Shown in pieces: positions 19,603 to 52,607 of a stretch of 64,000 nt of DNA. This DNA is from a virus. Its lineage: Duplodnaviria; Heunggongvirae; Uroviricota; Caudoviricetes. Location of the stretch: the IMG/VR virus record IMGVR_UViG_2799112330_000002, positions 32,001 to 96,000 of that record; one strand, given 5' to 3'. The position numbers were made by a program, and so were the translations under genes. How positions within the stretch are numbered: position 1 is the stretch's first letter; each line of letters starts with the position of its first letter. The notes beneath the pieces are model-generated. The model was not told where the DNA came from, did no database searches, and was given only the letters and a program-made list of their open reading frames with translations.

Positions 19603-20133
19603 ATGAAGAAATTAAATCAGTTCATAGCAGAAAAGTTTAGGATATCAAAAGATAATCTTGAACCTCATTACAATTATCAACCTAAGACAAAAAATGAACT
19701 AAAACAATTAGCAGATAAATTAATTAAAGAAAGAGGCAATGATGCTGATCTAAATGATATAGATACTTCGGAAATTACTGATATGTCTTCCATGTTTGAA
19801 GATTCAAAGTTTAATGGAGATATATCTAATTGGGATGTATCAAAAGTCAAAGACATGGAAGCAATGTTTGCTAGTTCTGAATTCAATGGAGATATATCTA
19901 ACTGGGATGTAAGTAAGGTTAAAAATATGAATAGGATGTTTTGGGGAACAAAATTTAACGGAGATATTTCTCAATGGGATGTAAGTAATGTTGAAGAAAT
20001 GTTTGGCATGTTTAGTTATTCTGAATTTAATGGTGATATTTCTCAATGGGATGTTAGCAATGTTGAAAATATGGGATGGGTGTTTAATTTTTGCCCATTA
20101 CATAAGAATCCACCAAAATGGTATAAAGAATAA
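19603..20133 (+). CDS. DUF285/BspA-like repeat protein with leader (4 x 24-aa repeats)
   Basis: MKKLNQFIAEKFRISKDNL; DLNDIDTSEITDM; FNGDIS.WDVS.V..M..MF repeats. Confidence 0.85.
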   Translation: MKKLNQFIAEKFRISKDNLEPHYNYQPKTKNELKQLADKLIKERGNDADLNDIDTSEITDMSSMFEDSKFNGDISNWDVSKVKDMEAMFASSEFNGDISNWDVSKVKNMNRMFWGTKFNGDISQWDVSNVEEMFGMFSYSEFNGDISQWDVSNVENMGWVFNFCPLHKNPPKWYKE

Positions 20134-20943
20134 ATAAAGTAATAATATATATGAAGAAATTAAGTACATTTATAACGGAGAAGTTTAGGATATCAAAAGA
20201 CAATCTTAAAGAACTAACATATAATTATTATCCAAAGACAAGATCTGAACTAGAAGATTTAATAGATGAGTTGATTAAAGAAAGAGGTAATGATGCTAAT
20301 CTAAATGATATAGATACTTCTGAAATTACTGATATGGCACAGTTATTTTATTATCGTAGTTTTAATGGAGATATATCTAAATGGGATGTAAGCAATGTTA
20401 AAGATATGAGTGGATTGTTTAGAGATTCTCAATTTAATGGAGACATATCTAGTTGGGATGTACATAATGTTGAAAATATGCGTTATATGTTTGCTGACAC
20501 TATTTTTAATGGGGATATATCTAATTGGAACGTAAGTAATGTTAACAATATGTATGGTATGTTTATTGATTCCAAATTTAATGGAGATATCTCTCAATGG
20601 GATGTAAGTAATGTTACACTTATGAGAGCTATGTTTATGGATTCTCAATTCAACGGAGATATATCTAAATGGAATGTAAGTAAAGTTGAAAATATGATAA
20701 ATATGTTTAAATGTTCTAAATTTAATGGAGATATATCTGATTGGGATGTAAGTAATGTCAAAAAGATGTCATGGATGTTTGAAGGATCGAAATTTAATGG
20801 AGATATATCTAAATGGGATGTAAGTAATGTTAAAGATATGAGTGGTATGTTTAAAGATTGTTCATTAAAAAAGAACCTGCCAGCATGGTATTTTGCGTGG
20901 TTATAAAGAATAAATAAAGTAATAATATATATGAAGAAATTAA
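20122..20943 (+). repeat. 42-bp identical direct repeat (20122-20163, 20902-20943) flanking gene 20151
   Basis: TATAAAGAATAAATAAAGTAATAATATATATGAAGAAATTAA twice. Confidence 0.85.
20151..20906 (+). CDS. DUF285/BspA-like repeat protein with leader (7 repeats)
   Basis: MKKLSTFITEKFRISKDNL; FNGDIS repeats. Confidence 0.85.
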   Translation: MKKLSTFITEKFRISKDNLKELTYNYYPKTRSELEDLIDELIKERGNDANLNDIDTSEITDMAQLFYYRSFNGDISKWDVSNVKDMSGLFRDSQFNGDISSWDVHNVENMRYMFADTIFNGDISNWNVSNVNNMYGMFIDSKFNGDISQWDVSNVTLMRAMFMDSQFNGDISKWNVSKVENMINMFKCSKFNGDISDWDVSNVKKMSWMFEGSKFNGDISKWDVSNVKDMSGMFKDCSLKKNLPAWYFAWL

Positions 20944-21704
20944 ATCAGTTCATTATAGAAAAATTCAGGCTATCAAAAGATAATCTTATACGCAAGTATA
21001 ACTATCATCCTAAGACAAGAGATGAACTAAAAGATTTAATAGATGATTTAATTAAGGAAAGAGGTAATGAGGCTGATCTAAATGATATAGATACTTCTGT
21101 AATTACTGATATGTCTTTTTTATTTATGAATTCTAAATTCACCGGAAATATTTCTGAATGGGATGTAAGTAATGTTAAGGATATGCAATTTATGTTTGCT
21201 TATTCTGAATTTAATGAGGATATCTCTAATTGGGATGTAAATAAGGTTGAACATATGCAATGTATGTTTAAAAATTCTGTATTTAATGAGGATATATCTA
21301 AATGGGATGTAAGTAAAGTTGAAAACATGAGAGGTATGTTTAAAGATTCTGTATTTAATGGAGATATATCTAATTGGGATGTAAGTAATGTTAAAGATAT
21401 GCAATCAATGTTTTCACATTCTGAATTCAATGGAGATATCTCAAAATGGGATGTAAGTAATGTTAAAGATATGCCATGGATGTTTAAAAATTCTGTATTT
21501 AATGGGGATATATCTAATTGGAATGTAAGTAATGTTGAAGATATGTCATGGGTGTTTCAAGGATCTAAATTTAATGGAGACATATCTTTATGGGACGTTA
21601 GTAATGTTAAAAGTATGAGATCTATGTTTGTTAGTAATGTTAAACATGTGGATTATATATTTAATAATTGCCCATTAGAAGATAATCCACCAGCATGGTA
21701 TTAA
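20931..21704 (+). CDS. DUF285/BspA-like repeat protein with leader (7 repeats)
   Basis: MKKLNQFIIEKFRLSKDNL; FN[GE]DIS repeats. Confidence 0.85.
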   Translation: MKKLNQFIIEKFRLSKDNLIRKYNYHPKTRDELKDLIDDLIKERGNEADLNDIDTSVITDMSFLFMNSKFTGNISEWDVSNVKDMQFMFAYSEFNEDISNWDVNKVEHMQCMFKNSVFNEDISKWDVSKVENMRGMFKDSVFNGDISNWDVSNVKDMQSMFSHSEFNGDISKWDVSNVKDMPWMFKNSVFNGDISNWNVSNVEDMSWVFQGSKFNGDISLWDVSNVKSMRSMFVSNVKHVDYIFNNCPLEDNPPAWY

Positions 21705-21740
21705 AAAATAAAGAATATAATAATATAATAATTAAACAAT

Positions 21741-22193
21741 ATGAAGAAACTTAATCAGTTCATTATAGAGAAATTCAGGTTATCAAAAGACAATTTGAAT
21801 AAACAACAAAGAGATTTATCAAATACTGATATCTCTAAGGTAAAGCAATTAATGCGTTTTAAAACTCCTCGAGAAGAAAATATGAATTGGGTCAAAATGG
21901 AACAATATTTTAATAAAAAGTCTAATCCACAAAGATTAGTAAACAGTATTAAAGATGATAGAAAACTATTGTTTCGTTGGTATATTTGTGTATATAATGG
22001 ATATTCTGATTATTATCCAACATTTAGAGAAGCCATTGTTGAAAGAGATATATGTAATGAAGATCAATTAGATGCATATATATTATTTAAGTATAATTCA
22101 ACATACGGAGGAAATTCGACATATACAAAAAGTATTAGAGAACGTCTTGAAGAATATTTAGATACCTATGATGTAAAATATGATAAAAAATAA
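21741..22193 (+). CDS. leader-bearing putative internal head protein, non-DUF285 body
   Basis: MKKLNQFIIEKFRLSKDNL followed by unrelated sequence. Confidence 0.75.
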   Translation: MKKLNQFIIEKFRLSKDNLNKQQRDLSNTDISKVKQLMRFKTPREENMNWVKMEQYFNKKSNPQRLVNSIKDDRKLLFRWYICVYNGYSDYYPTFREAIVERDICNEDQLDAYILFKYNSTYGGNSTYTKSIRERLEEYLDTYDVKYDKK

Positions 22194-22196
22194 AAA

Positions 22197-22700
22197 ATGA
22201 AGAAATTAAGTCGGTTCATTACAGAGAAATTCAGGTTATCAAAAGATAATCTAAAAGATATATGTCTATATGATGAATCAATAATAGACATTACTATTGA
22301 TAACTTTAGGCAATTAGTTGATGTTTTAGAAGAGTATTTTAAGTCATCTGATAAATATAAAATAACAGCGGCATTACCAAAGACTCAGCAAAGACAAATT
22401 AATGGTCCAAATCTAATTATATATGCTAATAATTGCGCATTTATAGATATTAAAGACTTGGAAAAGGATTTTATAATTGCTAGACTAATTGTTATTGTTA
22501 ATTATAGAAAGGGTGCTTATTTTCAAGCTTGGATAGTTGGTAAAGAACCAAATGATAAAGGAATAACTGAAACTCTAATTATGGCGCCTGAGCATCAATT
22601 TGAGTTTGGACATAATTTTAGAGATTGGCTTATGACAATTAATAATAGTAAGTTAAAAGACAAATATAAAAACATATTGAATTTATTTTTCCAAACATAA
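22197..22700 (+). CDS. leader-bearing putative internal head protein, non-DUF285 body
   Basis: MKKLSRFITEKFRLSKDNL followed by unrelated sequence. Confidence 0.75.
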   Translation: MKKLSRFITEKFRLSKDNLKDICLYDESIIDITIDNFRQLVDVLEEYFKSSDKYKITAALPKTQQRQINGPNLIIYANNCAFIDIKDLEKDFIIARLIVIVNYRKGAYFQAWIVGKEPNDKGITETLIMAPEHQFEFGHNFRDWLMTINNSKLKDKYKNILNLFFQT

Positions 22701-39440: not shown

Positions 39441-39508
39441 ATATTAAAATCAATACTAAAATGTTAGAAGATCTGTGTAAATACGTAGGTCTTCTTTTTT
39501 ATTTTTAT
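39441..39508 (+). repeat. repeated terminator plus promoter cassette (copy 1; copy 2 at 46970-47038)
   Basis: ATATTAAAATCAATACTAAAATG.TTAGAAGATCTGT...G[GA]TCTTCTTTTTTATTTTTA. Confidence 0.8.
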
Positions 39509-40820: not shown

Positions 40821-41924
40821 ATGTCAAAACAAAAATTAAATATAGCAATCGGTCGTTTTCAACCATTTACTCAAGGCCATTTGAACATGGTTAATGAAGG
40901 TGAAGGACCATGTATAGTATATAGAATCAATTCATCAAATAAGACTATTGAACGTAAGAAGAAAGGAATTAAGATTGGTAGTAAGTCTTGGACTGATGAA
41001 TCTGTAAATAAGGTTATAGCTTATATTGATAATCCAACAGGTGACTTAACTGAGCAAGAAAAGGAGCTTCTTAAACGTCCTTTCACAAATGAATTAATTG
41101 ACAAAGAACTTGAGTCAGTCAAGAAGGCTAATAAGAATATAATTGATGTTGTTCCTGTTACTCATGTTTATGATGCTTTAGGAAGATTTAATGCATTTCT
41201 TACTGAACATTCTGATGAATATGAACCAGGATATTGGATGTGTGGAGATGATCGTAAAGCTGACTTTGAAAGTAATATTGAAAAGATGGCTAAATATACA
41301 GATCTTGAAACAGAATTCAAATCGGGAAAAACATATCCAAATATTCTTATTGGAAAACTTAAAGTGAATACTGGCAAGGGGCGTACTGAAGGAGTTTCTG
41401 GAACAGCAGTTCGTAAATCTATTCTCAATAAAGACAAAGCTGCATTTGAAAAAATAATGCCTAAGGGCGCAGGATCTTTATTCAATGATTTCACTAAAGC
41501 ATTTGATGAATTTAAAGCTCAATTACAAAATATCATTAAAGAACATAAGATGATGACACTTAAAGAATATATTTTTGAAGCACAAAAAACTTGGCAAACA
41601 GAAATAATAGATATTGCTAAACAATATATTATTGAACCAAATAATGGAGAATATGATATATCAGATATTACAAAAATGATCAATACTAAAAAAATAGATG
41701 AATATTTAATTGGCTATTTATGTGAATATCTTGCTTATTCTGTAACAAATAGATATGGGGATGATTTAACTGTTGATGAAATTGTGGACAAAATGAAATC
41801 TCAATCACGAAAAGAAGCATATTTAAAATTGCAAAACTATGAAGATTCAGATAAAGAAATAACTGATTTGATAATTCAAGGATTACAAAAAGGATTAAGG
41901 AGAAATCCTAATTTTCCAGAATAA
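40821..41924 (+). CDS. cytidyltransferase-like (HxGH-type) nucleotidyltransferase with internal leader and fused C-terminal domain
   Basis: GRFQPFTQGH, GDDR, VSGTAVR; MMTLKEYIFE at aa 244-253. Confidence 0.8.
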   Translation: MSKQKLNIAIGRFQPFTQGHLNMVNEGEGPCIVYRINSSNKTIERKKKGIKIGSKSWTDESVNKVIAYIDNPTGDLTEQEKELLKRPFTNELIDKELESVKKANKNIIDVVPVTHVYDALGRFNAFLTEHSDEYEPGYWMCGDDRKADFESNIEKMAKYTDLETEFKSGKTYPNILIGKLKVNTGKGRTEGVSGTAVRKSILNKDKAAFEKIMPKGAGSLFNDFTKAFDEFKAQLQNIIKEHKMMTLKEYIFEAQKTWQTEIIDIAKQYIIEPNNGEYDISDITKMINTKKIDEYLIGYLCEYLAYSVTNRYGDDLTVDEIVDKMKSQSRKEAYLKLQNYEDSDKEITDLIIQGLQKGLRRNPNFPE

Positions 41925-41971
41925 AAAATATAATTAAAGAACATAAAATGCTGACACTTAAAGAATATATT
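41535..41971 (+). repeat. 39-bp direct repeat (41535-41573, 41933-41971; 2 mismatches)
   Basis: ATTAAAGAACATAA[GA]ATG[AC]TGACACTTAAAGAATATATT. Confidence 0.85.
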
Positions 41972-42322
41972 ACGGAAACAAAAGTTACAGATAACCAATT
42001 ATATGAAAATATAGAATGGTGTTTATCTGATTTATTAGAATTTAATGATGTCGATGAAAATTATTTATTATTGGCTATTGATGAATTTAATTCAGTTTAT
42101 AAAGCATTAACTGAAAAAAATGTAAAATATGATATTGATTTTATTTGGAAAACTTTATTAGAAAAATATGAAGATTTAATATATGAAAAAATAAATAAAA
42201 ATACATTTTTAAATATAATCAAAAAATATGATAAACAATTAACAGAAAATATATTGTTAAATGCAAAGGATAGTATAAAAGATATAAAAGACGAAATACA
42301 AAAAACAGGTAAATTAAGTTAA
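41948..42322 (+). CDS. leader-bearing protein
   Basis: MLTLKEYITE. Confidence 0.7.
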   Translation: MLTLKEYITETKVTDNQLYENIEWCLSDLLEFNDVDENYLLLAIDEFNSVYKALTEKNVKYDIDFIWKTLLEKYEDLIYEKINKNTFLNIIKKYDKQLTENILLNAKDSIKDIKDEIQKTGKLS

Positions 42323-42333
42323 TAAAAATTATT

Positions 42334-42627
42334 ATGAAATCAATTAATCAATATATTTCAGAATCACAGGATAAGTATTTTACACAACAAGAAATTGGTA
42401 AAATAACTAAAGATATGTGGGATAAGAATGGTCAATTTTATAAATTTATAAAAGATAAAGTTGATTCATTATCTAAAGAGGACATTAATGATTATCTTGA
42501 CCAATGTCTCGATGATGATAGATGCACAGCTGAATTTGCTTCCTATATTGAAATGATTATAGGACGTCATAACTTCAGTTTAGAACAAGTACAGCAGTTC
42601 ATAAATACAGAAGATTTAAAAGGATGA
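42334..42627 (+). CDS. leader-bearing protein
   Basis: MKSINQYISE. Confidence 0.7.
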   Translation: MKSINQYISESQDKYFTQQEIGKITKDMWDKNGQFYKFIKDKVDSLSKEDINDYLDQCLDDDRCTAEFASYIEMIIGRHNFSLEQVQQFINTEDLKG

Positions 42628-42664
42628 AAGTAGTGAAAAATAAATATATTTAAATATTAATAAC

Positions 42665-43615
42665 ATGAAATCAATTAGAGAATATATTAATGAAGCATAT
42701 CAAGCAACATATTTAAAAGGTTGGAAACCCGTAGAACAATTAGATAATAAACATCATATTACTGTTAAAGATGATAATATATTAGGAGTATTTTTTGATA
42801 ATACATGGAAATGGCATCATAAGAGATATGGTAATATATATATAGGAATGCTTAATAAAAATGAAATATCTAATCCAGAAATTAAACTTTATAGTGATAA
42901 AGGAGTTTTCACAAGTATTAAAGAAATTCAAGATGCATATAATACTACTGAAAAGAATTTGTCAAAATTAGTTAAAGAAAATAAAATTAAAATGTCATTA
43001 GTACTTAATAATTTTAATATATATGTTAAAATAATAAAACGAAATGATCTTTGGTATGATGAGATTGCAGCAGCGGGATTAAAATTAGCAGGTGTAGGTA
43101 AATCATTAGGTAAATGTTCATTTGAAACATTCTCAGTTGTTGATATAGATTTATCAAATCCAGATAATAATGATGCAAAATATGTATATAAAAATTATTC
43201 TCAAATATCTATTAAAAACCAAGTTGAAACAAGTGCAAGAAAAGATGGCGGCAGAAAAGTAACAGGATATTGTGCATTTACATTTGTCCCATATCATAAT
43301 TATGAAGATATTGAAACTGATGTTATTAAAGATAATGTAGATAGAAATTTATTACCTGCATTATTACTTCAATATTTGAAAAATACAAATATAACATTTG
43401 ATGATAAAAAAATATCATTATCATTAATTAAGAATCAATTAGAATTACAAGAAGATAAATATAAAGAGTTTAAAGAATTTATAGATAATCATATTAAAAG
43501 TTTAAATGCTGATGTTTTAAAACGTCATGAAGAATACTTACAATCTGATGATTATAAAAATGGAGAAGCTAGTAGAAAACATGATGATTATTTATTAATG
43601 ACAAATGGAATGTAA
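42665..43615 (+). CDS. leader-bearing protein
   Basis: MKSIREYINE. Confidence 0.72.
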   Translation: MKSIREYINEAYQATYLKGWKPVEQLDNKHHITVKDDNILGVFFDNTWKWHHKRYGNIYIGMLNKNEISNPEIKLYSDKGVFTSIKEIQDAYNTTEKNLSKLVKENKIKMSLVLNNFNIYVKIIKRNDLWYDEIAAAGLKLAGVGKSLGKCSFETFSVVDIDLSNPDNNDAKYVYKNYSQISIKNQVETSARKDGGRKVTGYCAFTFVPYHNYEDIETDVIKDNVDRNLLPALLLQYLKNTNITFDDKKISLSLIKNQLELQEDKYKEFKEFIDNHIKSLNADVLKRHEEYLQSDDYKNGEASRKHDDYLLMTNGM

Positions 43616-43714
43616 TAAAAATAAACTATGAAATACACTTATTTAAAAAATTAAAATACATAATTTTAGTTTAGAACAAGTACAGCAGTTCATAAATACA
43701 GAAGATTTAAAGGG

Positions 43715-44062
43715 ATGAAAGACTTAAGTAATTTTATAATTGAAAGAGGAGCAGCTCCTAATGTTAATATTGATAAAAGCAAAGTTATGTCAAAATATCC
43801 TCATGTAAATATGGTTATGTCTATTATCGATGAGTTAAAGAAGCATAATGACTGTAAGTTTGATGGTAAACAATGGTCTGGTAATGATGCTGATTTATGG
43901 AAAGGTGCAGGACAATTCTTATTTGACTATATGAAAGAATTAGGACAAAAAGAACTAAAAGATATTGTTGCACATTTTGGATGGGAGGAATATATAACAG
44001 ATTTAAACAAGATCTATCCAGCAGAAATTTCTATATGTATGGCTCAAGAATTACAAAAATAA
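43715..44062 (+). CDS. leader-bearing protein
   Basis: MKDLSNFIIE. Confidence 0.72.
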   Translation: MKDLSNFIIERGAAPNVNIDKSKVMSKYPHVNMVMSIIDELKKHNDCKFDGKQWSGNDADLWKGAGQFLFDYMKELGQKELKDIVAHFGWEEYITDLNKIYPAEISICMAQELQK

Positions 44063-44164
44063 CATATATAATATATAGAGATAATATTGGATGTCATAAT
44101 TTTAGTTTAGAGCAAGTATAATAATTTATAAATATAGAAGATTTAAAAGGATAAAAAATAAACT

Positions 44165-44836
44165 ATGTTAACTTTATTAGAATATATCAATGCAGAACGT
44201 TCTAATTTTCCAGATGAAGTTTGGTTTAATGATAAATGGTATAACACAGAATCAAAATATGCTCGTCCATTCATCATTAATATAAAAACACACCAATCAT
44301 TATTTGGAGAAATTGGTCAATATCATTGTAAAATGTCTAAATTAAAAATAATGTTAAAATTTTTTTGTACATGGGATAGCTTAAAAGACGAATATAGAGT
44401 TAAAACATCAACATATCATGGGAGAATATGGGTAATTAATGATACAGATATAAATACCGTGTTAATATGTTGGTGGGAAGACTTAAATGATCAAAATTTT
44501 TATGAACTTAACAAAGAATTAATATTAAAATACAATAAAAAATTTAATACAAATATAACAAAAGCATTAGTAGTTAATAATAATGATGAATTTGTTAATT
44601 TTGACATAAATAATAAAAACATTGAACATATTAAACCACGTTCTTCTGATAATAAAAAACTAAAAGAAATGCATAAAATTATTCATTTGGCTTCTCAAAA
44701 GGATAAAGAAGAATACTTTAAACAATTTAAGAAAATAAGAGATGAAAATAATCAAACAAAATATTATAATCATACAAAATCAAAAACAGAAGCTGAATGG
44801 AGAAGTATTAAATATCAAGAAAGTTTAGAAGAATAA
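44165..44836 (+). CDS. leader-bearing protein
   Basis: MLTLLEYINAE. Confidence 0.7.
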   Translation: MLTLLEYINAERSNFPDEVWFNDKWYNTESKYARPFIINIKTHQSLFGEIGQYHCKMSKLKIMLKFFCTWDSLKDEYRVKTSTYHGRIWVINDTDINTVLICWWEDLNDQNFYELNKELILKYNKKFNTNITKALVVNNNDEFVNFDINNKNIEHIKPRSSDNKKLKEMHKIIHLASQKDKEEYFKQFKKIRDENNQTKYYNHTKSKTEAEWRSIKYQESLEE

Positions 44837-44856
44837 AATAAATAATAAATTTTAAT

Positions 44857-45207
44857 ATGAAATCTATTAATGAATATATAACGGAATCTGTAGCATCAAT
44901 TAAAGTGAATAAGATGAAACAAGAATTCAAACAGAAATTTGATAATAAAGTGACTATAGGTTCAGGCCGGGCAAATCATCAACAATTATATGATGTATAT
45001 ATCTATGATGATAAAATGAATACTCTGAAAGAAGTAAATGAAATTCTTAAACGTTATTTGAAAAAATGGAAAGGATTTAGTTATAAAGAATTAAAAGATA
45101 AACTTAAAGAAAAGGGAGATTTCTTTAAAGATTATCAAGATGATGATTTATGCACATTAGATAGATATCCAGTTGAATTTATCAGATTTACTTCCAGAGA
45201 TTTATAA
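44857..45207 (+). CDS. leader-bearing protein
   Basis: MKSINEYITE. Confidence 0.72.
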   Translation: MKSINEYITESVASIKVNKMKQEFKQKFDNKVTIGSGRANHQQLYDVYIYDDKMNTLKEVNEILKRYLKKWKGFSYKELKDKLKEKGDFFKDYQDDDLCTLDRYPVEFIRFTSRDL

Positions 45208-45215
45208 AGTACTAT

Positions 45216-45245
45216 AGAAGATCTAATCAATAGGTCTTCTTTTTT
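45216..45245 (+). terminator. AGAAGATCT/AGGTCTTCT-type terminator
   Basis: AGAAGATCTA-ATCAA-TAGGTCTTCT-TTTTT. Confidence 0.7.
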
Positions 45246-45315
45246 ATTCATTTCCTTATAATATTTTTTTTTATTTTTAACTATATTATAAATGTATAAA
45301 TAAAATAGATCAATT

Positions 45316-45615
45316 ATGAAAGATATTAAACAATACATTACAGAAGGCAAAAATGGATGGGAATTTTTTGATAGTGCAACCGATACTTTTGGCGGTGGAA
45401 TAGAACTATCTGGACTTGAAAATAAAAAAATAAAATGGCTTTTAGTCAATACAGATTCAGAAATTATTGCTGGTGTTACAGAATATAATTTAGATTCATG
45501 GGCAGAGGATGATGAATATTTTAAAGATGCTGCAAAAGCAATCAAATCATTAAAGATAGGAGACTCTTATGATGCTGATGGCGGTATAAATATTTATCTT
45601 AGAATTAGAAAATAA
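45316..45615 (+). CDS. leader-bearing protein (possible distant paralog of 46691)
   Basis: MKDIKQYITE; IKSLKIGDSY...RIRK. Confidence 0.7.
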   Translation: MKDIKQYITEGKNGWEFFDSATDTFGGGIELSGLENKKIKWLLVNTDSEIIAGVTEYNLDSWAEDDEYFKDAAKAIKSLKIGDSYDADGGINIYLRIRK

Positions 45616-45637
45616 AAATAAAATATTAGTAAATAGT

Positions 45638-46138
45638 ATGAAAAGTATTAATGCATACATAACAGAAAGATATCAGAATAATGCATCAAATAAAGAGGCT
45701 ATGTTCTTGCATTTAGATGGTTTGCGTCAATCAGAAGGATTTTCATTTACCGAAGGAGAAAAGGCTTTACTTTTAAAATATGATACTGATGGATATCGTA
45801 TTCAAGTTAGAGGTATTGTAGAAATTGAAAAGGTACTTAAGAACAGTATTCGTATAAAGACCGAAGATGCAGATTCAACCGATTTTTATCATAGTTTAAA
45901 ATTTGATAAGACTGGTATTGCTATAGTTAAGACAAATAGCAAATATCGTGGTAAGTCAACAGCATATTGGGTTCTATATAATAAAGAACTTATCAATAGT
46001 GATAAAGATGGTAAGGATATTACTGAAATATTAAATACTAAGGGTAATATCTGGGGATTCCATTTATATGGTCATGAAGATTTCCAAAAACAAGATCTTA
46101 AAGATCTTAAAAAATATGTTAAAGAAATGAATAAATAA
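45638..46138 (+). CDS. leader-bearing protein
   Basis: MKSINAYITE. Confidence 0.72.
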   Translation: MKSINAYITERYQNNASNKEAMFLHLDGLRQSEGFSFTEGEKALLLKYDTDGYRIQVRGIVEIEKVLKNSIRIKTEDADSTDFYHSLKFDKTGIAIVKTNSKYRGKSTAYWVLYNKELINSDKDGKDITEILNTKGNIWGFHLYGHEDFQKQDLKDLKKYVKEMNK

Positions 46139-46140
46139 AT

Positions 46141-46383
46141 ATGAAAGACATAATGAATTTTTTGATAAATGAATCTAGAACAAGATTTATAGACATTGAA
46201 CAATATGGAAATTCATGGATAAAAGAATGGGGTTCTGAATATTGTGGGGATGTTTTGAAAAACTTTATAAAAGGAGTTGAAAGAGGTATGAAATGTCTTA
46301 AATCAGATGATGCCAAATTTCAAAAACGTTGTGAAGATTGTATTAGTGAAATATTAGAAAAAATAAATAAAGACATATATTAA
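46141..46383 (+). CDS. leader-bearing protein, tandem paralog A
   Basis: MKDIMNFLINE; SWIKEWGSEYCG...FQKRCEDCI. Confidence 0.75.
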   Translation: MKDIMNFLINESRTRFIDIEQYGNSWIKEWGSEYCGDVLKNFIKGVERGMKCLKSDDAKFQKRCEDCISEILEKINKDIY

Positions 46384-46385
46384 AT

Positions 46386-46655
46386 ATGAAGAACTTAAAA
46401 GAAAAGTTAATAAATGAAGCAAAGAAAACAGATTTTGAAAAAATAGAAGATCTTGGTGCTTCATGGATAAAAGAATGGGGATCTGAATATTGTGGTAATA
46501 TTCTTAGTTCTGTTATAAAAGGAATTCAGAAAGGAATAAAAGAAAATCCATATACTAATGATAAGAATGCATATCCAGCAAATAATACATTTCAGAAACG
46601 TTGTGAAGACTGCATTAAGAAAATCCTTAATGAAATAAATGAAGACATATATTAA
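46386..46655 (+). CDS. leader-bearing protein, tandem paralog B
   Basis: MKNLKEKLINE; SWIKEWGSEYCG...FQKRCEDCI. Confidence 0.75.
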   Translation: MKNLKEKLINEAKKTDFEKIEDLGASWIKEWGSEYCGNILSSVIKGIQKGIKENPYTNDKNAYPANNTFQKRCEDCIKKILNEINEDIY

Positions 46656-46690
46656 ATATGAAGAACTTAAAAAATATTATATATTAAATT

Positions 46691-46969: not shown

Positions 46970-47038
46970 ATATTAAAATCAATACTAAAATGATTAGAAG
47001 ATCTGTATGAATATATGGATCTTCTTTTTTATTTTTAA
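46970..47038 (+). repeat. repeated terminator plus promoter cassette (copy 2)
   Basis: near-identical to 39441-39508. Confidence 0.8.
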
Positions 47039-47062
47039 CTATATATTTAATTATTAAAGATT

Positions 47063-48420: not shown

Positions 48421-49713
48421 ATGAAATCACTTATACAATATATTTCAGAAACTGAAAGAATATCATCAATAGATGATTATATACATGAAGCCTTGCAACC
48501 AATTTTAGAAGGTGGTGCTGGTGGTCACATGGCTCATCCTTTTGATTATACTGACTTTACAGCAAACGACTTGATAGAATTAGTTGACTCATTATTTCAA
48601 GGCAAGGTTGAAGACTTAAAAGAAAAACTTGATGGATTCAATATTGAAGCAACAATGAATAATGATGGTCAAGTTGTATTTGTAAGAAATGATGAGGAAC
48701 GAAATTCTGAACAAGGTGGTATTACTATTGATGAAATGTATAAGAAATGGGAAGGCAAAGATCAACAGATAAAAGTATATACATCTTCAGGAAAAGTCAT
48801 TGAACAGATTTTCAAGAAATTCCCTGTTAAGTTTTTCAATCCAGATCCCAATCATCGTAAAATGTATAATTGTGAATGCATAGTTTCAGGACAGACAAAC
48901 ATTATGCCTTATGCTGCTGATAGGGTAGCGTTTCATGGATATAAGATTTATGAAAAGGGAATAGGAACAAAGAAAGGTAAGTTCTTTAATAAGGAAGTTT
49001 GGAATGTTGTTGAAGACGTAGAAGGAAATGTTGATGATATCTATAAAGCTGCTGAAGGAATAGACAAAGCTAAGCCACGTCCTAATTTGGTTATACGTTC
49101 ATTAGAAGATGGAATTAAGTTTGCAAAGAAATTCTCACAAGACATATCTAAATTATGGTCTGATGAAGGATTAGAAAATACTGCTTCTGTGGAAGACTGG
49201 AAAAAGTCTAGATTTAGAAAATTTGCTCCTGCTTGGTGTAAAGATGATGATCGTATATTTAATCGTCTATGCAATGCTGACAAAACAGTCAACTTGAGAT
49301 TATTGAAAAAAGAATATGAAGATCATATTGATGAATTGAATGAGCTTGATAAGAAGGAAGGAAAGAAACTTGTGGGCAAGATCATGGAACCAATGGACAA
49401 TCTTTTCTTATCAATAGGTAATGAACTTATTGATCAACTTGATGGATTCATTAATTCAGGTTCAAAGGAAAAGATTGTAGCTCAATTGAAGGCAGATATG
49501 GAATCAACAGTTAAAGCAGTTGAAGCATCAGATTCTGTTGATGCAAAAGATAAACTTGAAAAATCAATACAACGTCTTCAAGCATTGAATAATAAGTATA
49601 ATGCAGCTGAAGGAATTGTAATAATGTATAAAGGTAGAAGAATGAAATTCACTGGAAGTTTTGCTCCATTGAATGCTGCCTTAGGGACAAGATTTATGTT
49701 AGAAGAAAAATAA
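48421..49713 (+). CDS. leader-bearing ATP-dependent ligase/nucleotidyltransferase-fold protein (DUF6267-like)
   Basis: MKSLIQYISE; EGGAGGHMAHPFD; motif I EKLDG, III E, IIIa FHG, IV EGIV, V MKFTG. Confidence 0.7.
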   Translation: MKSLIQYISETERISSIDDYIHEALQPILEGGAGGHMAHPFDYTDFTANDLIELVDSLFQGKVEDLKEKLDGFNIEATMNNDGQVVFVRNDEERNSEQGGITIDEMYKKWEGKDQQIKVYTSSGKVIEQIFKKFPVKFFNPDPNHRKMYNCECIVSGQTNIMPYAADRVAFHGYKIYEKGIGTKKGKFFNKEVWNVVEDVEGNVDDIYKAAEGIDKAKPRPNLVIRSLEDGIKFAKKFSQDISKLWSDEGLENTASVEDWKKSRFRKFAPAWCKDDDRIFNRLCNADKTVNLRLLKKEYEDHIDELNELDKKEGKKLVGKIMEPMDNLFLSIGNELIDQLDGFINSGSKEKIVAQLKADMESTVKAVEASDSVDAKDKLEKSIQRLQALNNKYNAAEGIVIMYKGRRMKFTGSFAPLNAALGTRFMLEEK

Positions 49714-50909: not shown

Positions 50910-52607
50910 ATGGCAAACAAAAAATGTATGGTATTTGAGACCATGAACAATATCAACTCTAGTATGCATATTGTTGAGTCTTCAAATCCAAAAGAAATTC
51001 GTTTAACGGGTGTATTTGGTGTTGCAGGTGTTAAGAATAACAATAATCGTATTTATGACAAGAAAAACTATGGGATGATGGTTGAGTCACTTCAGAAGGT
51101 TATAACTACTGAAGGTTGTCTTGGTGAATTAGAGCATCCAAACTCTATGAACATCAATCTCAATAATGTATCTCATAAGATTGAGTCAATTCAAATGAAT
51201 GAAGATGGTACAGTAGTTGGAACAATAGTATTGCTTGATACTGATAAAGGTAGAAATGCAAAAGCTATTATTGAAGGTGGAGTTCCATTATACATTTCAT
51301 CTCGTGCTGCTGGATCAATTGATGCTTCTGGTCATGTTACATTGACAACTCTTAAGACTTACGATCTAGTTGGTACCCCTGGTTTTAGTCAAGCAAAACT
51401 TAATCTTTCTGAAAATCAGACATTTGAATCTTTGAATGAGTCAATGTGCGTTATATATGAGAATGATGACGAAGGTGATGATCTCTTAGGCGATGATACA
51501 GATGACAAGAAAGAAGAAAAAGATTCTAAAGATGAAAAAGATTCTAAAGAAGAAAAGGATTCTAAAGAAGACAAAGATTCTAAGGATGATGATAAGAAAG
51601 ATGAAGACAAAAAGGATTCTAAAGAAAAAGAAGAAAATAACAAAAATAAAGAAGATAATAACATTACTATGAAAGATGTAAAAGAAGCTATTGATAAACT
51701 AACTGAAAAAGTTGAATCACTTCAAGCCGATTTACATGTAGCTCAAGAAAGCTTAGAGGAAAAAGATCAAAAAATTCAAGAATTAACAGAAAAACTTGAA
51801 AGTAATAAAGTAGATTATCCTGCTATTCAGGAATGGGTAGAAACAGAATTTGCTAATAACTTCAAGAGTGATATCCTTGAATCAGTTGATGAATCAATTA
51901 AAGAATCAGCTGGTAAGAATGATCTTGATTCTATCAAAGAGTGGATTAATGAAGAATTTGCTCCTGTATTAGAAGAGTGGATTACAGAAGAATTCGCTCC
52001 AGAAATACAGAATTGGGTTACAGAAGAATTTGCTCCAGAAGTACAAAACTGGGTATGTGAAGAATTTGCTCCAGAAGTACAAGGATGGATCACAGAAGAA
52101 TTTGCTCCAGAAGTACAAAACTGGGTATGTGAAGAATTTGCTCCAGAAGTACAAGGATGGATCACTGAGGAATTTGCTCCTGTAGTTGATTCTTGGATCA
52201 ATGAGGAATGCATTCCTGAAAATGTAAACAAGATCTTTGAAACTCGTAAGAGTGAAAGTCTTAGTTCAATTGACAGCTTATTAGAAGCTATTGAAGGCAA
52301 CAACAAGCCAAATGAAGCTCTTGAACTACTTAAAGAAAAGCAAGTAGATGAAAAGTATAAAGGTGTCTATGTTGTTGAAAACATGCCAAGTGAATATATG
52401 CCTCAATGGTCAATGGTATCTGAAGCTAAACAACAAGATATCATTAGAAGATCAAAGATGTATGATTTCACAAAACAAGGCGTACTTGAATCATTCTGGG
52501 CTAGTGTAGACTTTACTGAACTTCCAAAGGAAACTATCAATGAAAGCAATGTAGACAGCTATCATGCAAACATTTTCCAGAGAATGAAGTCATTACGTAA
52601 GTTCTAA
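50910..52607 (+). CDS. gp21: prohead protease (gp21-like) fused to scaffold-like acidic repeat domain
   Basis: KNNNNRIY, GELEHP, ISSRAAGS, TYDLVGTPG; long acidic coiled-coil C-terminus; immediately upstream of MCP. Confidence 0.88.
   Translation: MANKKCMVFETMNNINSSMHIVESSNPKEIRLTGVFGVAGVKNNNNRIYDKKNYGMMVESLQKVITTEGCLGELEHPNSMNINLNNVSHKIESIQMNEDGTVVGTIVLLDTDKGRNAKAIIEGGVPLYISSRAAGSIDASGHVTLTTLKTYDLVGTPGFSQAKLNLSENQTFESLNESMCVIYENDDEGDDLLGDDTDDKKEEKDSKDEKDSKEEKDSKEDKDSKDDDKKDEDKKDSKEKEENNKNKEDNNITMKDVKEAIDKLTEKVESLQADLHVAQESLEEKDQKIQELTEKLESNKVDYPAIQEWVETEFANNFKSDILESVDESIKESAGKNDLDSIKEWINEEFAPVLEEWITEEFAPEIQNWVTEEFAPEVQNWVCEEFAPEVQGWITEEFAPEVQNWVCEEFAPEVQGWITEEFAPVVDSWINEECIPENVNKIFETRKSESLSSIDSLLEAIEGNNKPNEALELLKEKQVDEKYKGVYVVENMPSEYMPQWSMVSEAKQQDIIRRSKMYDFTKQGVLESFWASVDFTELPKETINESNVDSYHANIFQRMKSLRKF
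51942..52220 (+). repeat. 36-bp (12-aa) tandem repeat, about 8 units, W[IV]xEEFAPE[VI]Qx
   Basis: GAAGAATTTGCTCCAGAAGTACAA recurring; includes an exact 72-bp duplication. Confidence 0.9.

Follow-up and report, generated by a model that had tools for sequence, protein, structure and literature searches.

Anti-defence and host-takeover genes have a rapid turnover in phages, and the routes by which this happens without the enzymes of mobile elements are only partly understood. What moves such genes is the question raised by a stretch of 64,000 nucleotides (hereafter the window) from a tailed phage, bases 32001–96000 of a 410,106-bp contig with 29% G+C (G000:C82; IMG/VR record IMGVR_UViG_2799112330_000002), where small genes with a shared N-terminal leader form an array and some of them lie between direct repeats. 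An earlier note on this DNA had read the repeats as borders of cargo cassettes, gained and lost by single crossovers at the leader or gene junction in an integron-like manner. Comparison with relatives points to a reading that we consider probable, in which the cargo array is reshuffled by recombination at leaders and gene junctions, the repeats being scars of general short-homology recombination in a hyperplastic array.

The leader, M-K-x-[LI]-x-x-[YF]-I-x-E, is carried by 21 of the 24 genes between 35996 and 50075. Its first eight positions (M-K-x-[LI]-x-x-[YF]-I) open 103 of the 670 open reading frames (ORFs) of at least 60 aa on the 410-kb contig, against 34 of 1718 on other contigs, and the closing glutamate is also present in 86 of the 103. 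The fixed positions are 4, 7, 8 and 10, as in the T4 capsid targeting sequence (CTS), where positions 4 and 7 are reported to decide targeting and positions 8 and 10 cleavage (PMC9026906). About 100 genes of the contig thus have a ten-residue leader of the kind borne by T4-type internal proteins (hydrophobic residues at positions 4 and 7, with a closing I/L-x-E). The array is probably one of genes for head-packaged ("internal") proteins; the leader would serve in capsid targeting, and the proteins that bear it would be packaged.

For comparison, five related stretches from IMG/VR and 23 from metagenomes were fetched (L numbers below). Gene content and order of the array vary widely among them, the polymorphism typical of a T4-type internal-protein locus. 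When the window was aligned to its relatives with blastn, a gene start was no more than 30 nt away from 68% of the left ends of homology blocks (random positions, 11%), and 94% of the right ends lay within 30 nt of a gene end or leader end; these percentages are descriptive only, as the relatives share kinship and are not independent. The cross-relative comparison that the earlier note had proposed thus came out as it expected: gene content and order differ, and homology blocks end at gene borders. It also turned up an empty site in L014 and the predicted gene coupling in L008, L012, L017 and L021, both at the junction behind a conserved gene, here called U. The features of this part of the array are as follows.

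42334–42627, + strand: gene U, 97 aa, leader MKSINQYISE, conserved at 60–98% amino-acid identity in at least 25 related loci; its 3′ end is the 63-bp junction.
42568–42630, + strand: R1, consisting of the last 20 codons of U, then ATGA, in which stop and start overlap, and a dead start (ATG AAA GTA TAG).
42631–43658, + strand: insert with leader gene 42665–43615 (316 aa, function unknown), absent from all related loci fetched.
43659–43721, + strand: R2, a non-coding copy of the U 3′ end, 60/63 identical to R1; its ATG starts gene 43715.
43715–44062, + strand: leader gene, 115 aa, ATGA-coupled directly to U in five relatives.
About 44083–44157, + strand: R3, a decayed third copy of the U 3′ end (nhmmer E = 1.2e-15), with ATG changed to ATA and in-frame stops.
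44165–44836, + strand: leader gene, 223 aa, without a counterpart in any other sequence fetched.
44857–45207, + strand: leader gene, 116 aa, ATGA-coupled to U in L005, L006, L010, L022 and L024.

The longest perfect run shared by R1 and R2 is 44 nt. A 63-mer search of up to three mismatches returned exactly these two copies, and none of 100 dinucleotide-preserving shuffles gave any match. As the earlier note had described, GGATGAAAG in the first copy holds the stop of 42334 together with an ATG whose reading frame meets TAG after three codons, while in the second copy the same ATG is the start of gene 43715. It had further proposed that removal of one repeat plus the insert would give an ATGA-coupled 42334–43715 pair, and this is the arrangement of L008, L012, L014, L017 and L021, where U is followed by a 43715 homologue with 83% (L014), 61% (L021) or 47% (L008, L012, L017) amino-acid identity. 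In L014, whose U homologue (90%) is coupled to its 43715 homologue through ATGA, a single stretch (2395–2456) aligns to both R1 and R2, and the alignment continues unbroken across R2 and gene 43715 (2395–2811); L014 therefore represents the predicted empty site. A deletion between R1 and R2, through their perfect run, would restore exactly the L014 arrangement. In other relatives U is followed by a homologue of 44857 (L005, L006, L010, L022, L024) or by some other gene (L007, L011, L018, L020, L023, L025, L026, L027, L030).

The variant GCAGTTC is common to R1 and R2 and is found elsewhere only in L030, which indicates that the duplication is young and arose within the window's lineage. L030 has a different gene (167 aa) at the same junction with no flanking duplicate, and a junction remnant searched for in that locus did not rise above shuffles (188/500). 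Among about 25 relatives, the 63-bp junction is duplicated in this genome only, and an exact 17-mer junction scan of viral_contigs returned four known relatives plus chance matches. Of the integron-like cassette model, the homology-driven shuffling at leader and junction is supported; the idea of the repeats as a general attachment site does not. R3 is 83% identical to R1 and at most 88% identical to the U 3′ end of any relative (nearest L022, L019 and L014), a divergence that makes it older than R2. A possible fourth remnant before 44857 is marginal, 10 of 500 shuffles scoring equally well. As for the cargo, gene 42665 has 19 homologue clusters in public data (46–99% identity); scans for it in viral_contigs (single protein, alignment), genome_contigs (alignment) and 300 host-family genomes gave no match, and a scan of viral_contigs for gene 44165 found nothing.

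Gene U itself shows a weak resemblance, below threshold, to the N-terminal SAM-like domain of integrases (E = 0.002, 18.9 bits vs. a cut-off of 27), which is probably due to chance, although the 3′ end of U is an insertion hot spot. In L029 (5936–7291, 451 aa) and L031 (1135–2889, 584 aa) the U homologue forms the C-terminal part of a longer ORF that starts MDYL[VI]DKYLKKP, apparently a further in-frame fusion in the array.

Upstream of U, a second repeat accompanies a gene fusion.

40821–41924, + strand: cytidylyltransferase-like gene (Pfam CTP_transf_like) fused in frame to a 114-aa C-terminal module; relatives match residues 4–254 only.
41524–41585, + strand: copy 1 of the repeat, coding, with the transferase 3′ end (QNIIKEHK) and an embedded leader.
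41580–41921, + strand: module A, the inserted C-terminal module, with no match in 29 related loci.
41922–41983, + strand: copy 2 of the repeat, a 26-nt non-coding remnant of the transferase 3′ end followed by the leader of gene 41948.
41948–42322, + strand: leader gene, 124 aa, MLTLKEYITE.

The repeat pair given in the earlier note (41535–41573 and 41933–41971) is identical at 37 of 39 positions, and at its full extent of 62 nt the identity is 85%. The transferase gene has no N-terminal leader; its internal leader-like motif, MMTLKEYIFE, runs from 41550. Homology of the transferase to its relatives stops at the end of the embedded leader (41579–41582), and in relatives other modules are fused at this same point, in agreement with the module boundary that the earlier note had placed there. 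All 15 transferase homologues end in QNIIKEHK-x-[MI][ST]LKE[YF]I-x-E, the four most distant in a diverged variant ending DLKTYITE. After the motif, the ORF stops within a few codons in eight homologues; the other seven continue in frame into at least four different, unrelated modules. The module fused in L022 is 94% identical, from residue 13 onward, to the free-standing window gene 37829, and that of L026 is 89% identical to a free-standing L007 gene adjoining the 3′ end of the transferase. The parentage of these fusions switches, at the DNA level, inside the leader; since these two modules are free-standing leader genes in other genomes, the crossover fell within the leader. Copy 2 of the repeat is closer to the transferase 3′ ends of L014 (96%) and L006 (93%) than to its own copy 1, and the closeness to L014 points to exchange between genomes. 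A tandem-paralogue origin of module A and gene 41948 was rejected, the leader being all that they have in common. This fusion family is the most informative of the cases and gives direct comparative evidence: as judged from sequence, leader-coding DNA is a recombination joint.

The conserved C-terminal motif of an enzyme that lacks the N-terminal leader (41524–41585 in the window; homologues in L004–L028) may be a capsid-targeting or cleavage signal in its own right. T4 Alt is reported to be processed at both of its ends (PMC9026906). At 48421–48502, the 5′ end of a 430-aa leader protein is unlike that of its homologues, and homology to all relatives starts at 48503; the relatives begin ML-x-LQRYI and are 18 residues shorter, an apparent swap of the leader segment.

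Two further repeat pairs, both of which exist as reported (46371–46400 and 46643–46672, 30/30 identical; 20122–20163 and 20902–20943, 42/42 identical), lie in the following settings.

46141–46672, + strand: tandem paralogues 46141–46383 and 46386–46655, then a 15-nt dead start (46658–46672).
19603–22700, + strand: tandem array of five paralogous repeat proteins (MKKLNQFIxEKFRxSKDNL) with 72-nt units, containing the 42-bp pair.

Genes 46141 and 46386 share about 80% DNA identity over their whole length, with a 24-nt indel and a best block of 84 nt at 85%, and the 30-bp repeat is simply the best-kept stretch of this whole-gene paralogy. The view that cargo had been inserted between these two repeat pairs was thus not borne out; both are duplications of tandem paralogues, and unequal crossing-over explains them. 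The next gene is homologous to L004 from 46670 onward, a boundary that lies right at the dead start and reads as another break inside a leader.

The short homologies that recombination would use could be supplied by the roughly 30 nt of leader-coding DNA and by the conserved end of the upstream gene. General recombination, with the phage's own RecA, would act both between co-infecting relatives and between neighbouring genes, and crossovers, most of them in frame and located at gene borders, would swap, add, delete, duplicate or fuse entire genes. The U|43715 junction would have gained a gene together with a 63-bp duplication, an older and similar event having left R3; at the transferase, a module would have been stacked at the leader-like motif that ends the enzyme; and unequal crossing-over among tandem paralogues would have produced the other two repeat pairs. 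We infer the enzyme, the direction of each event, its reversibility (deletion between R1 and R2) and any circular intermediate. The earlier note had seen no integrase in the window, and this holds for the whole 410-kb contig, which has no tyrosine recombinase/integrase (PF00589; the four matches of the bin are all on other contigs) and no resolvase (PF00239). The cargo genes gave no match to nuclease or transposase families in Pfam or PHROG, and for hairpins in R1, R2, R3 and both copies of the transferase repeat DNA-fold z-scores ranged from −1.7 to +1.9 relative to shuffles (junction copies, −0.2, −1.7 and +1.9). The lack of a recombinase, of junction folding, of inverted repeats and of nuclease or transposase families, together with a RecA of the phage's own, argues for scars of general recombination. 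Several points weigh against this reading. For recombination of the RecA type, leader copies are short (some 30 nt) and diverged (about 70–88% identical), and the left borders of R2, R3 and copy 2 of the transferase repeat are novel joints with no visible homology, so that at least one illegitimate join is needed per event. The duplicated junction, moreover, occurs in this genome only, and such scars say little about how most exchanges happen.

Other explanations of the repeats were weighed against the same evidence. A transposon was rejected, the ends of the insert (42631 and 43658) showing no terminal inverted repeats, no transposase family being matched and the duplication being 63 bp long; likewise a free-standing homing endonuclease, as neither Pfam nor PHROG gave a nuclease match for module A or for genes 42665, 43715 and 44165. 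An integron as such was rejected for want of an integrase and of hairpins, and a dedicated integron-like or other site-specific cassette system, with circular cassettes and an unrecognised recombinase or nuclease acting on the junction or leader, seems to us very improbable. It would account for the uniform orientation of the cargo genes and for the succession of 42665, 43715 and 44165, each after a copy of one junction element, and the contig does have many ORFs of unknown function besides the weak SAM-like match of U; against it stand the contig's lack of tyrosine and serine recombinases, junction copies with no hairpin potential, left borders that differ between R2 and R3, crossover points that vary between the leader and the upstream gene end, and relatives in which genes come and go at the same site with no duplication of the junction. 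It is unlikely, too, that R1–R3 go back to an older tandem duplication of U, with foreign genes having overwritten the second and third copies save for their 3′ ends. Two tandem U paralogues do occur in L005/L006 and in L029, and R3 starts about 10 nt farther upstream than R2 and is far more diverged, as independent decay predicts. The repeat, however, extends over the first 7 nt of gene 43715 (ATGAAAG), which fits insertion into U|43715 (the seventh base being the one informative position); the young lineage variant shared by R1 and R2 would require a recent duplicate of U to have been overwritten immediately, and a 294-nt gene does not match repeats spaced 1091 and 436 nt apart. Least credible of all is an assembly artefact in which strain variants with different post-U genes were stitched together via their shared junction. 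The metagenome bin that holds the contig, together with a 1.9-Mb low-G+C genome, is 7% contaminated, and variants with different post-U genes co-occur in related samples. A graph loop would nevertheless give identical copies, whereas 3 and about 10 substitutions separate the three junction copies, R3 bears decay mutations, and R2 and R3 each have at their left border a unique joint that must be present in reads.

A further reading, which we hold to be possible but doubtful, concerns why the junction is kept rather than how it arose, and is compatible with general recombination at leaders and junctions, as both can hold. The 63-bp junction would be a regulatory module composed of a phage late-type promoter and the translation-start region of the next gene, and the repeats would be selected parts of mobile promoter–gene units. 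The word TATAAATA is the late-promoter word of T4. Over the whole contig it is enriched five- to ninefold within 70 nt upstream of starts, where its own starts cluster at −30 to −21 (examples in the window are 45291 and 44122), and it stands upstream of 14 of 109 leader genes and 14 of 213 other long ORFs, against about 1.4% expected. At −24 the junction has TATAAATA (R3 and most relatives) or CATAAATA (R1 and R2), that is, (T/C)ATAAATA; R2 is kept intact directly before gene 43715, and the contig has a Sigma70_r2 match above the cut-off (248862–248999). The box, however, also codes for F-I-N-T of U in relatives, so that coding constraint alone may account for its conservation; within the window's own lineage the 8-mer is interrupted by a synonymous substitution, and even ATAAATA is absent from seven relatives. 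A search with T4 gp55 itself brought up no homologue on the phage, promoter matches of the sigma-70 type show no enrichment (52 against an expected 62.6), and the junction has no hairpin. A promoter may be one reason for the retention of about 60 nt of upstream sequence.

At the other extreme lies a stronger version of recombination at the leader, to which we give little credence: leader DNA and ATGA junctions as a universal in-frame joint at which cargo is excised, circularised, re-inserted and fused during each infection at measurable frequency. If that were so, modules would also be docked onto enzymes that have a C-terminal copy of the motif, and a phage population would amount to a combinatorial library of injected proteins.

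The closest known counterparts are the PeSL (promoter-early stem-loop) cassettes of the T4-type phages RB49 and phi1, in which an ORF is flanked by two copies of the element and a close relative has a single copy (Arbiol et al., 2010, PMC2839356; Comeau et al., 2014, PMC4122927). Mini-circles were detected there by inverse PCR, no integrase was present, the general recombination of the phage was invoked, and the comparison with integrons was made by the authors themselves (PMC2839356). The locus described here resembles PeSL in having one non-essential ORF between direct copies of a short element (63 bp, as against about 100 bp in PeSL), a close relative with one copy and no ORF (L014), no integrase, and events confined to hyperplastic regions. 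It differs in that the element joins the 3′ coding end of the preceding gene to a start codon or leader, whereas that of PeSL is intergenic and combines a strong early promoter of sigma-70 type with a terminator hairpin; the 63-bp element has no stem-loop, lacks the promoter-plus-stem-loop make-up and is duplicated in this genome only.

Likeness extends to the T-even internal-protein (IP) loci, which are hypervariable (Repoila et al., 1994, EMBO J 13:4181, as described in PMC2839356 and PMC3012670). As far as those descriptions go, both comprise unrelated small genes with a common capsid-targeting leader and a gp21-type protease, gene number, order and identity vary among relatives, and conserved flanks were proposed to mediate the shuffling. 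Within the same descriptions the differences are of scale (here some 100 leader genes in a genome of 410 kb, in T-even phages a handful), of the crossover point, placed here inside leader DNA with in-frame fusions to an enzyme that has a C-terminal motif, and of host and phage lineage, which here are different and uncultured. With integrons the array shares promoterless cassettes of the same orientation stacked at one junction; it has no IntI-type recombinase, attC hairpin or attI site, and its breakpoints are not fixed. The model that applies is one of gene shuffling already published for T4-type phages (PMC2839356), not an integron-like machine. What differs here is the coding nature of the joint (a sorting leader and the end of the upstream gene), the family of in-frame fusions at a C-terminal motif, and the scale.

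The locus offers clean natural examples: one site in both its empty and its filled state, and in-frame fusions with modules that recur as free-standing genes. It suggests that a protein-sorting signal can double as a recombination joint at the DNA level, keeping new cargo both in frame and correctly addressed. No new principle is involved; the IP-locus and PeSL idea is extended to very large uncultured phages with about 100 such genes, and a simple rule for finding exchangeable cargo in metagenomes suggests itself.

The wider contig encodes a portal protein, large terminase, tail sheath, a Gp23-family capsid protein (Gp23 match, 102.9 bits) and a Peptidase_S77 protease, by which it is identified as an uncultured jumbo myophage with a T4-type head. 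The gp23-family capsid protein and the gp21-type protease are the pair that goes with a T4-type cargo locus, and the protease gene lies in the window.

50910–52607, + strand: prohead protease of the T4 gp21 family (Pfam Peptidase_S77, 44.5 bits vs. a cut-off of 27; PHROG head maturation protease).

This protease is expected to process the I-x-E end of the leader. The RecA of the phage is encoded at contig positions 273225–274007; it is full-length, bacterial-type, and scores 418 bits against Pfam RecA. It is distinct from the RecA of the host bin, which is on contig C37.

The array is split into blocks by three terminator-like hairpins (39441–39507, 45216–45310 and 46996–47062), each followed by a shared AT-rich stretch, TTTTTATTTTTAACTATAT. 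The second and third have a common stem, AGAAGATC. The module near 46996 matches that near 39441 at 90% identity over 68 nt, and the one near 45216 is preserved at 93% in L024. These modules of hairpin plus AT-rich stretch, near 39441, 45216 and 46996, look more like PeSL than the 63-bp junction does.

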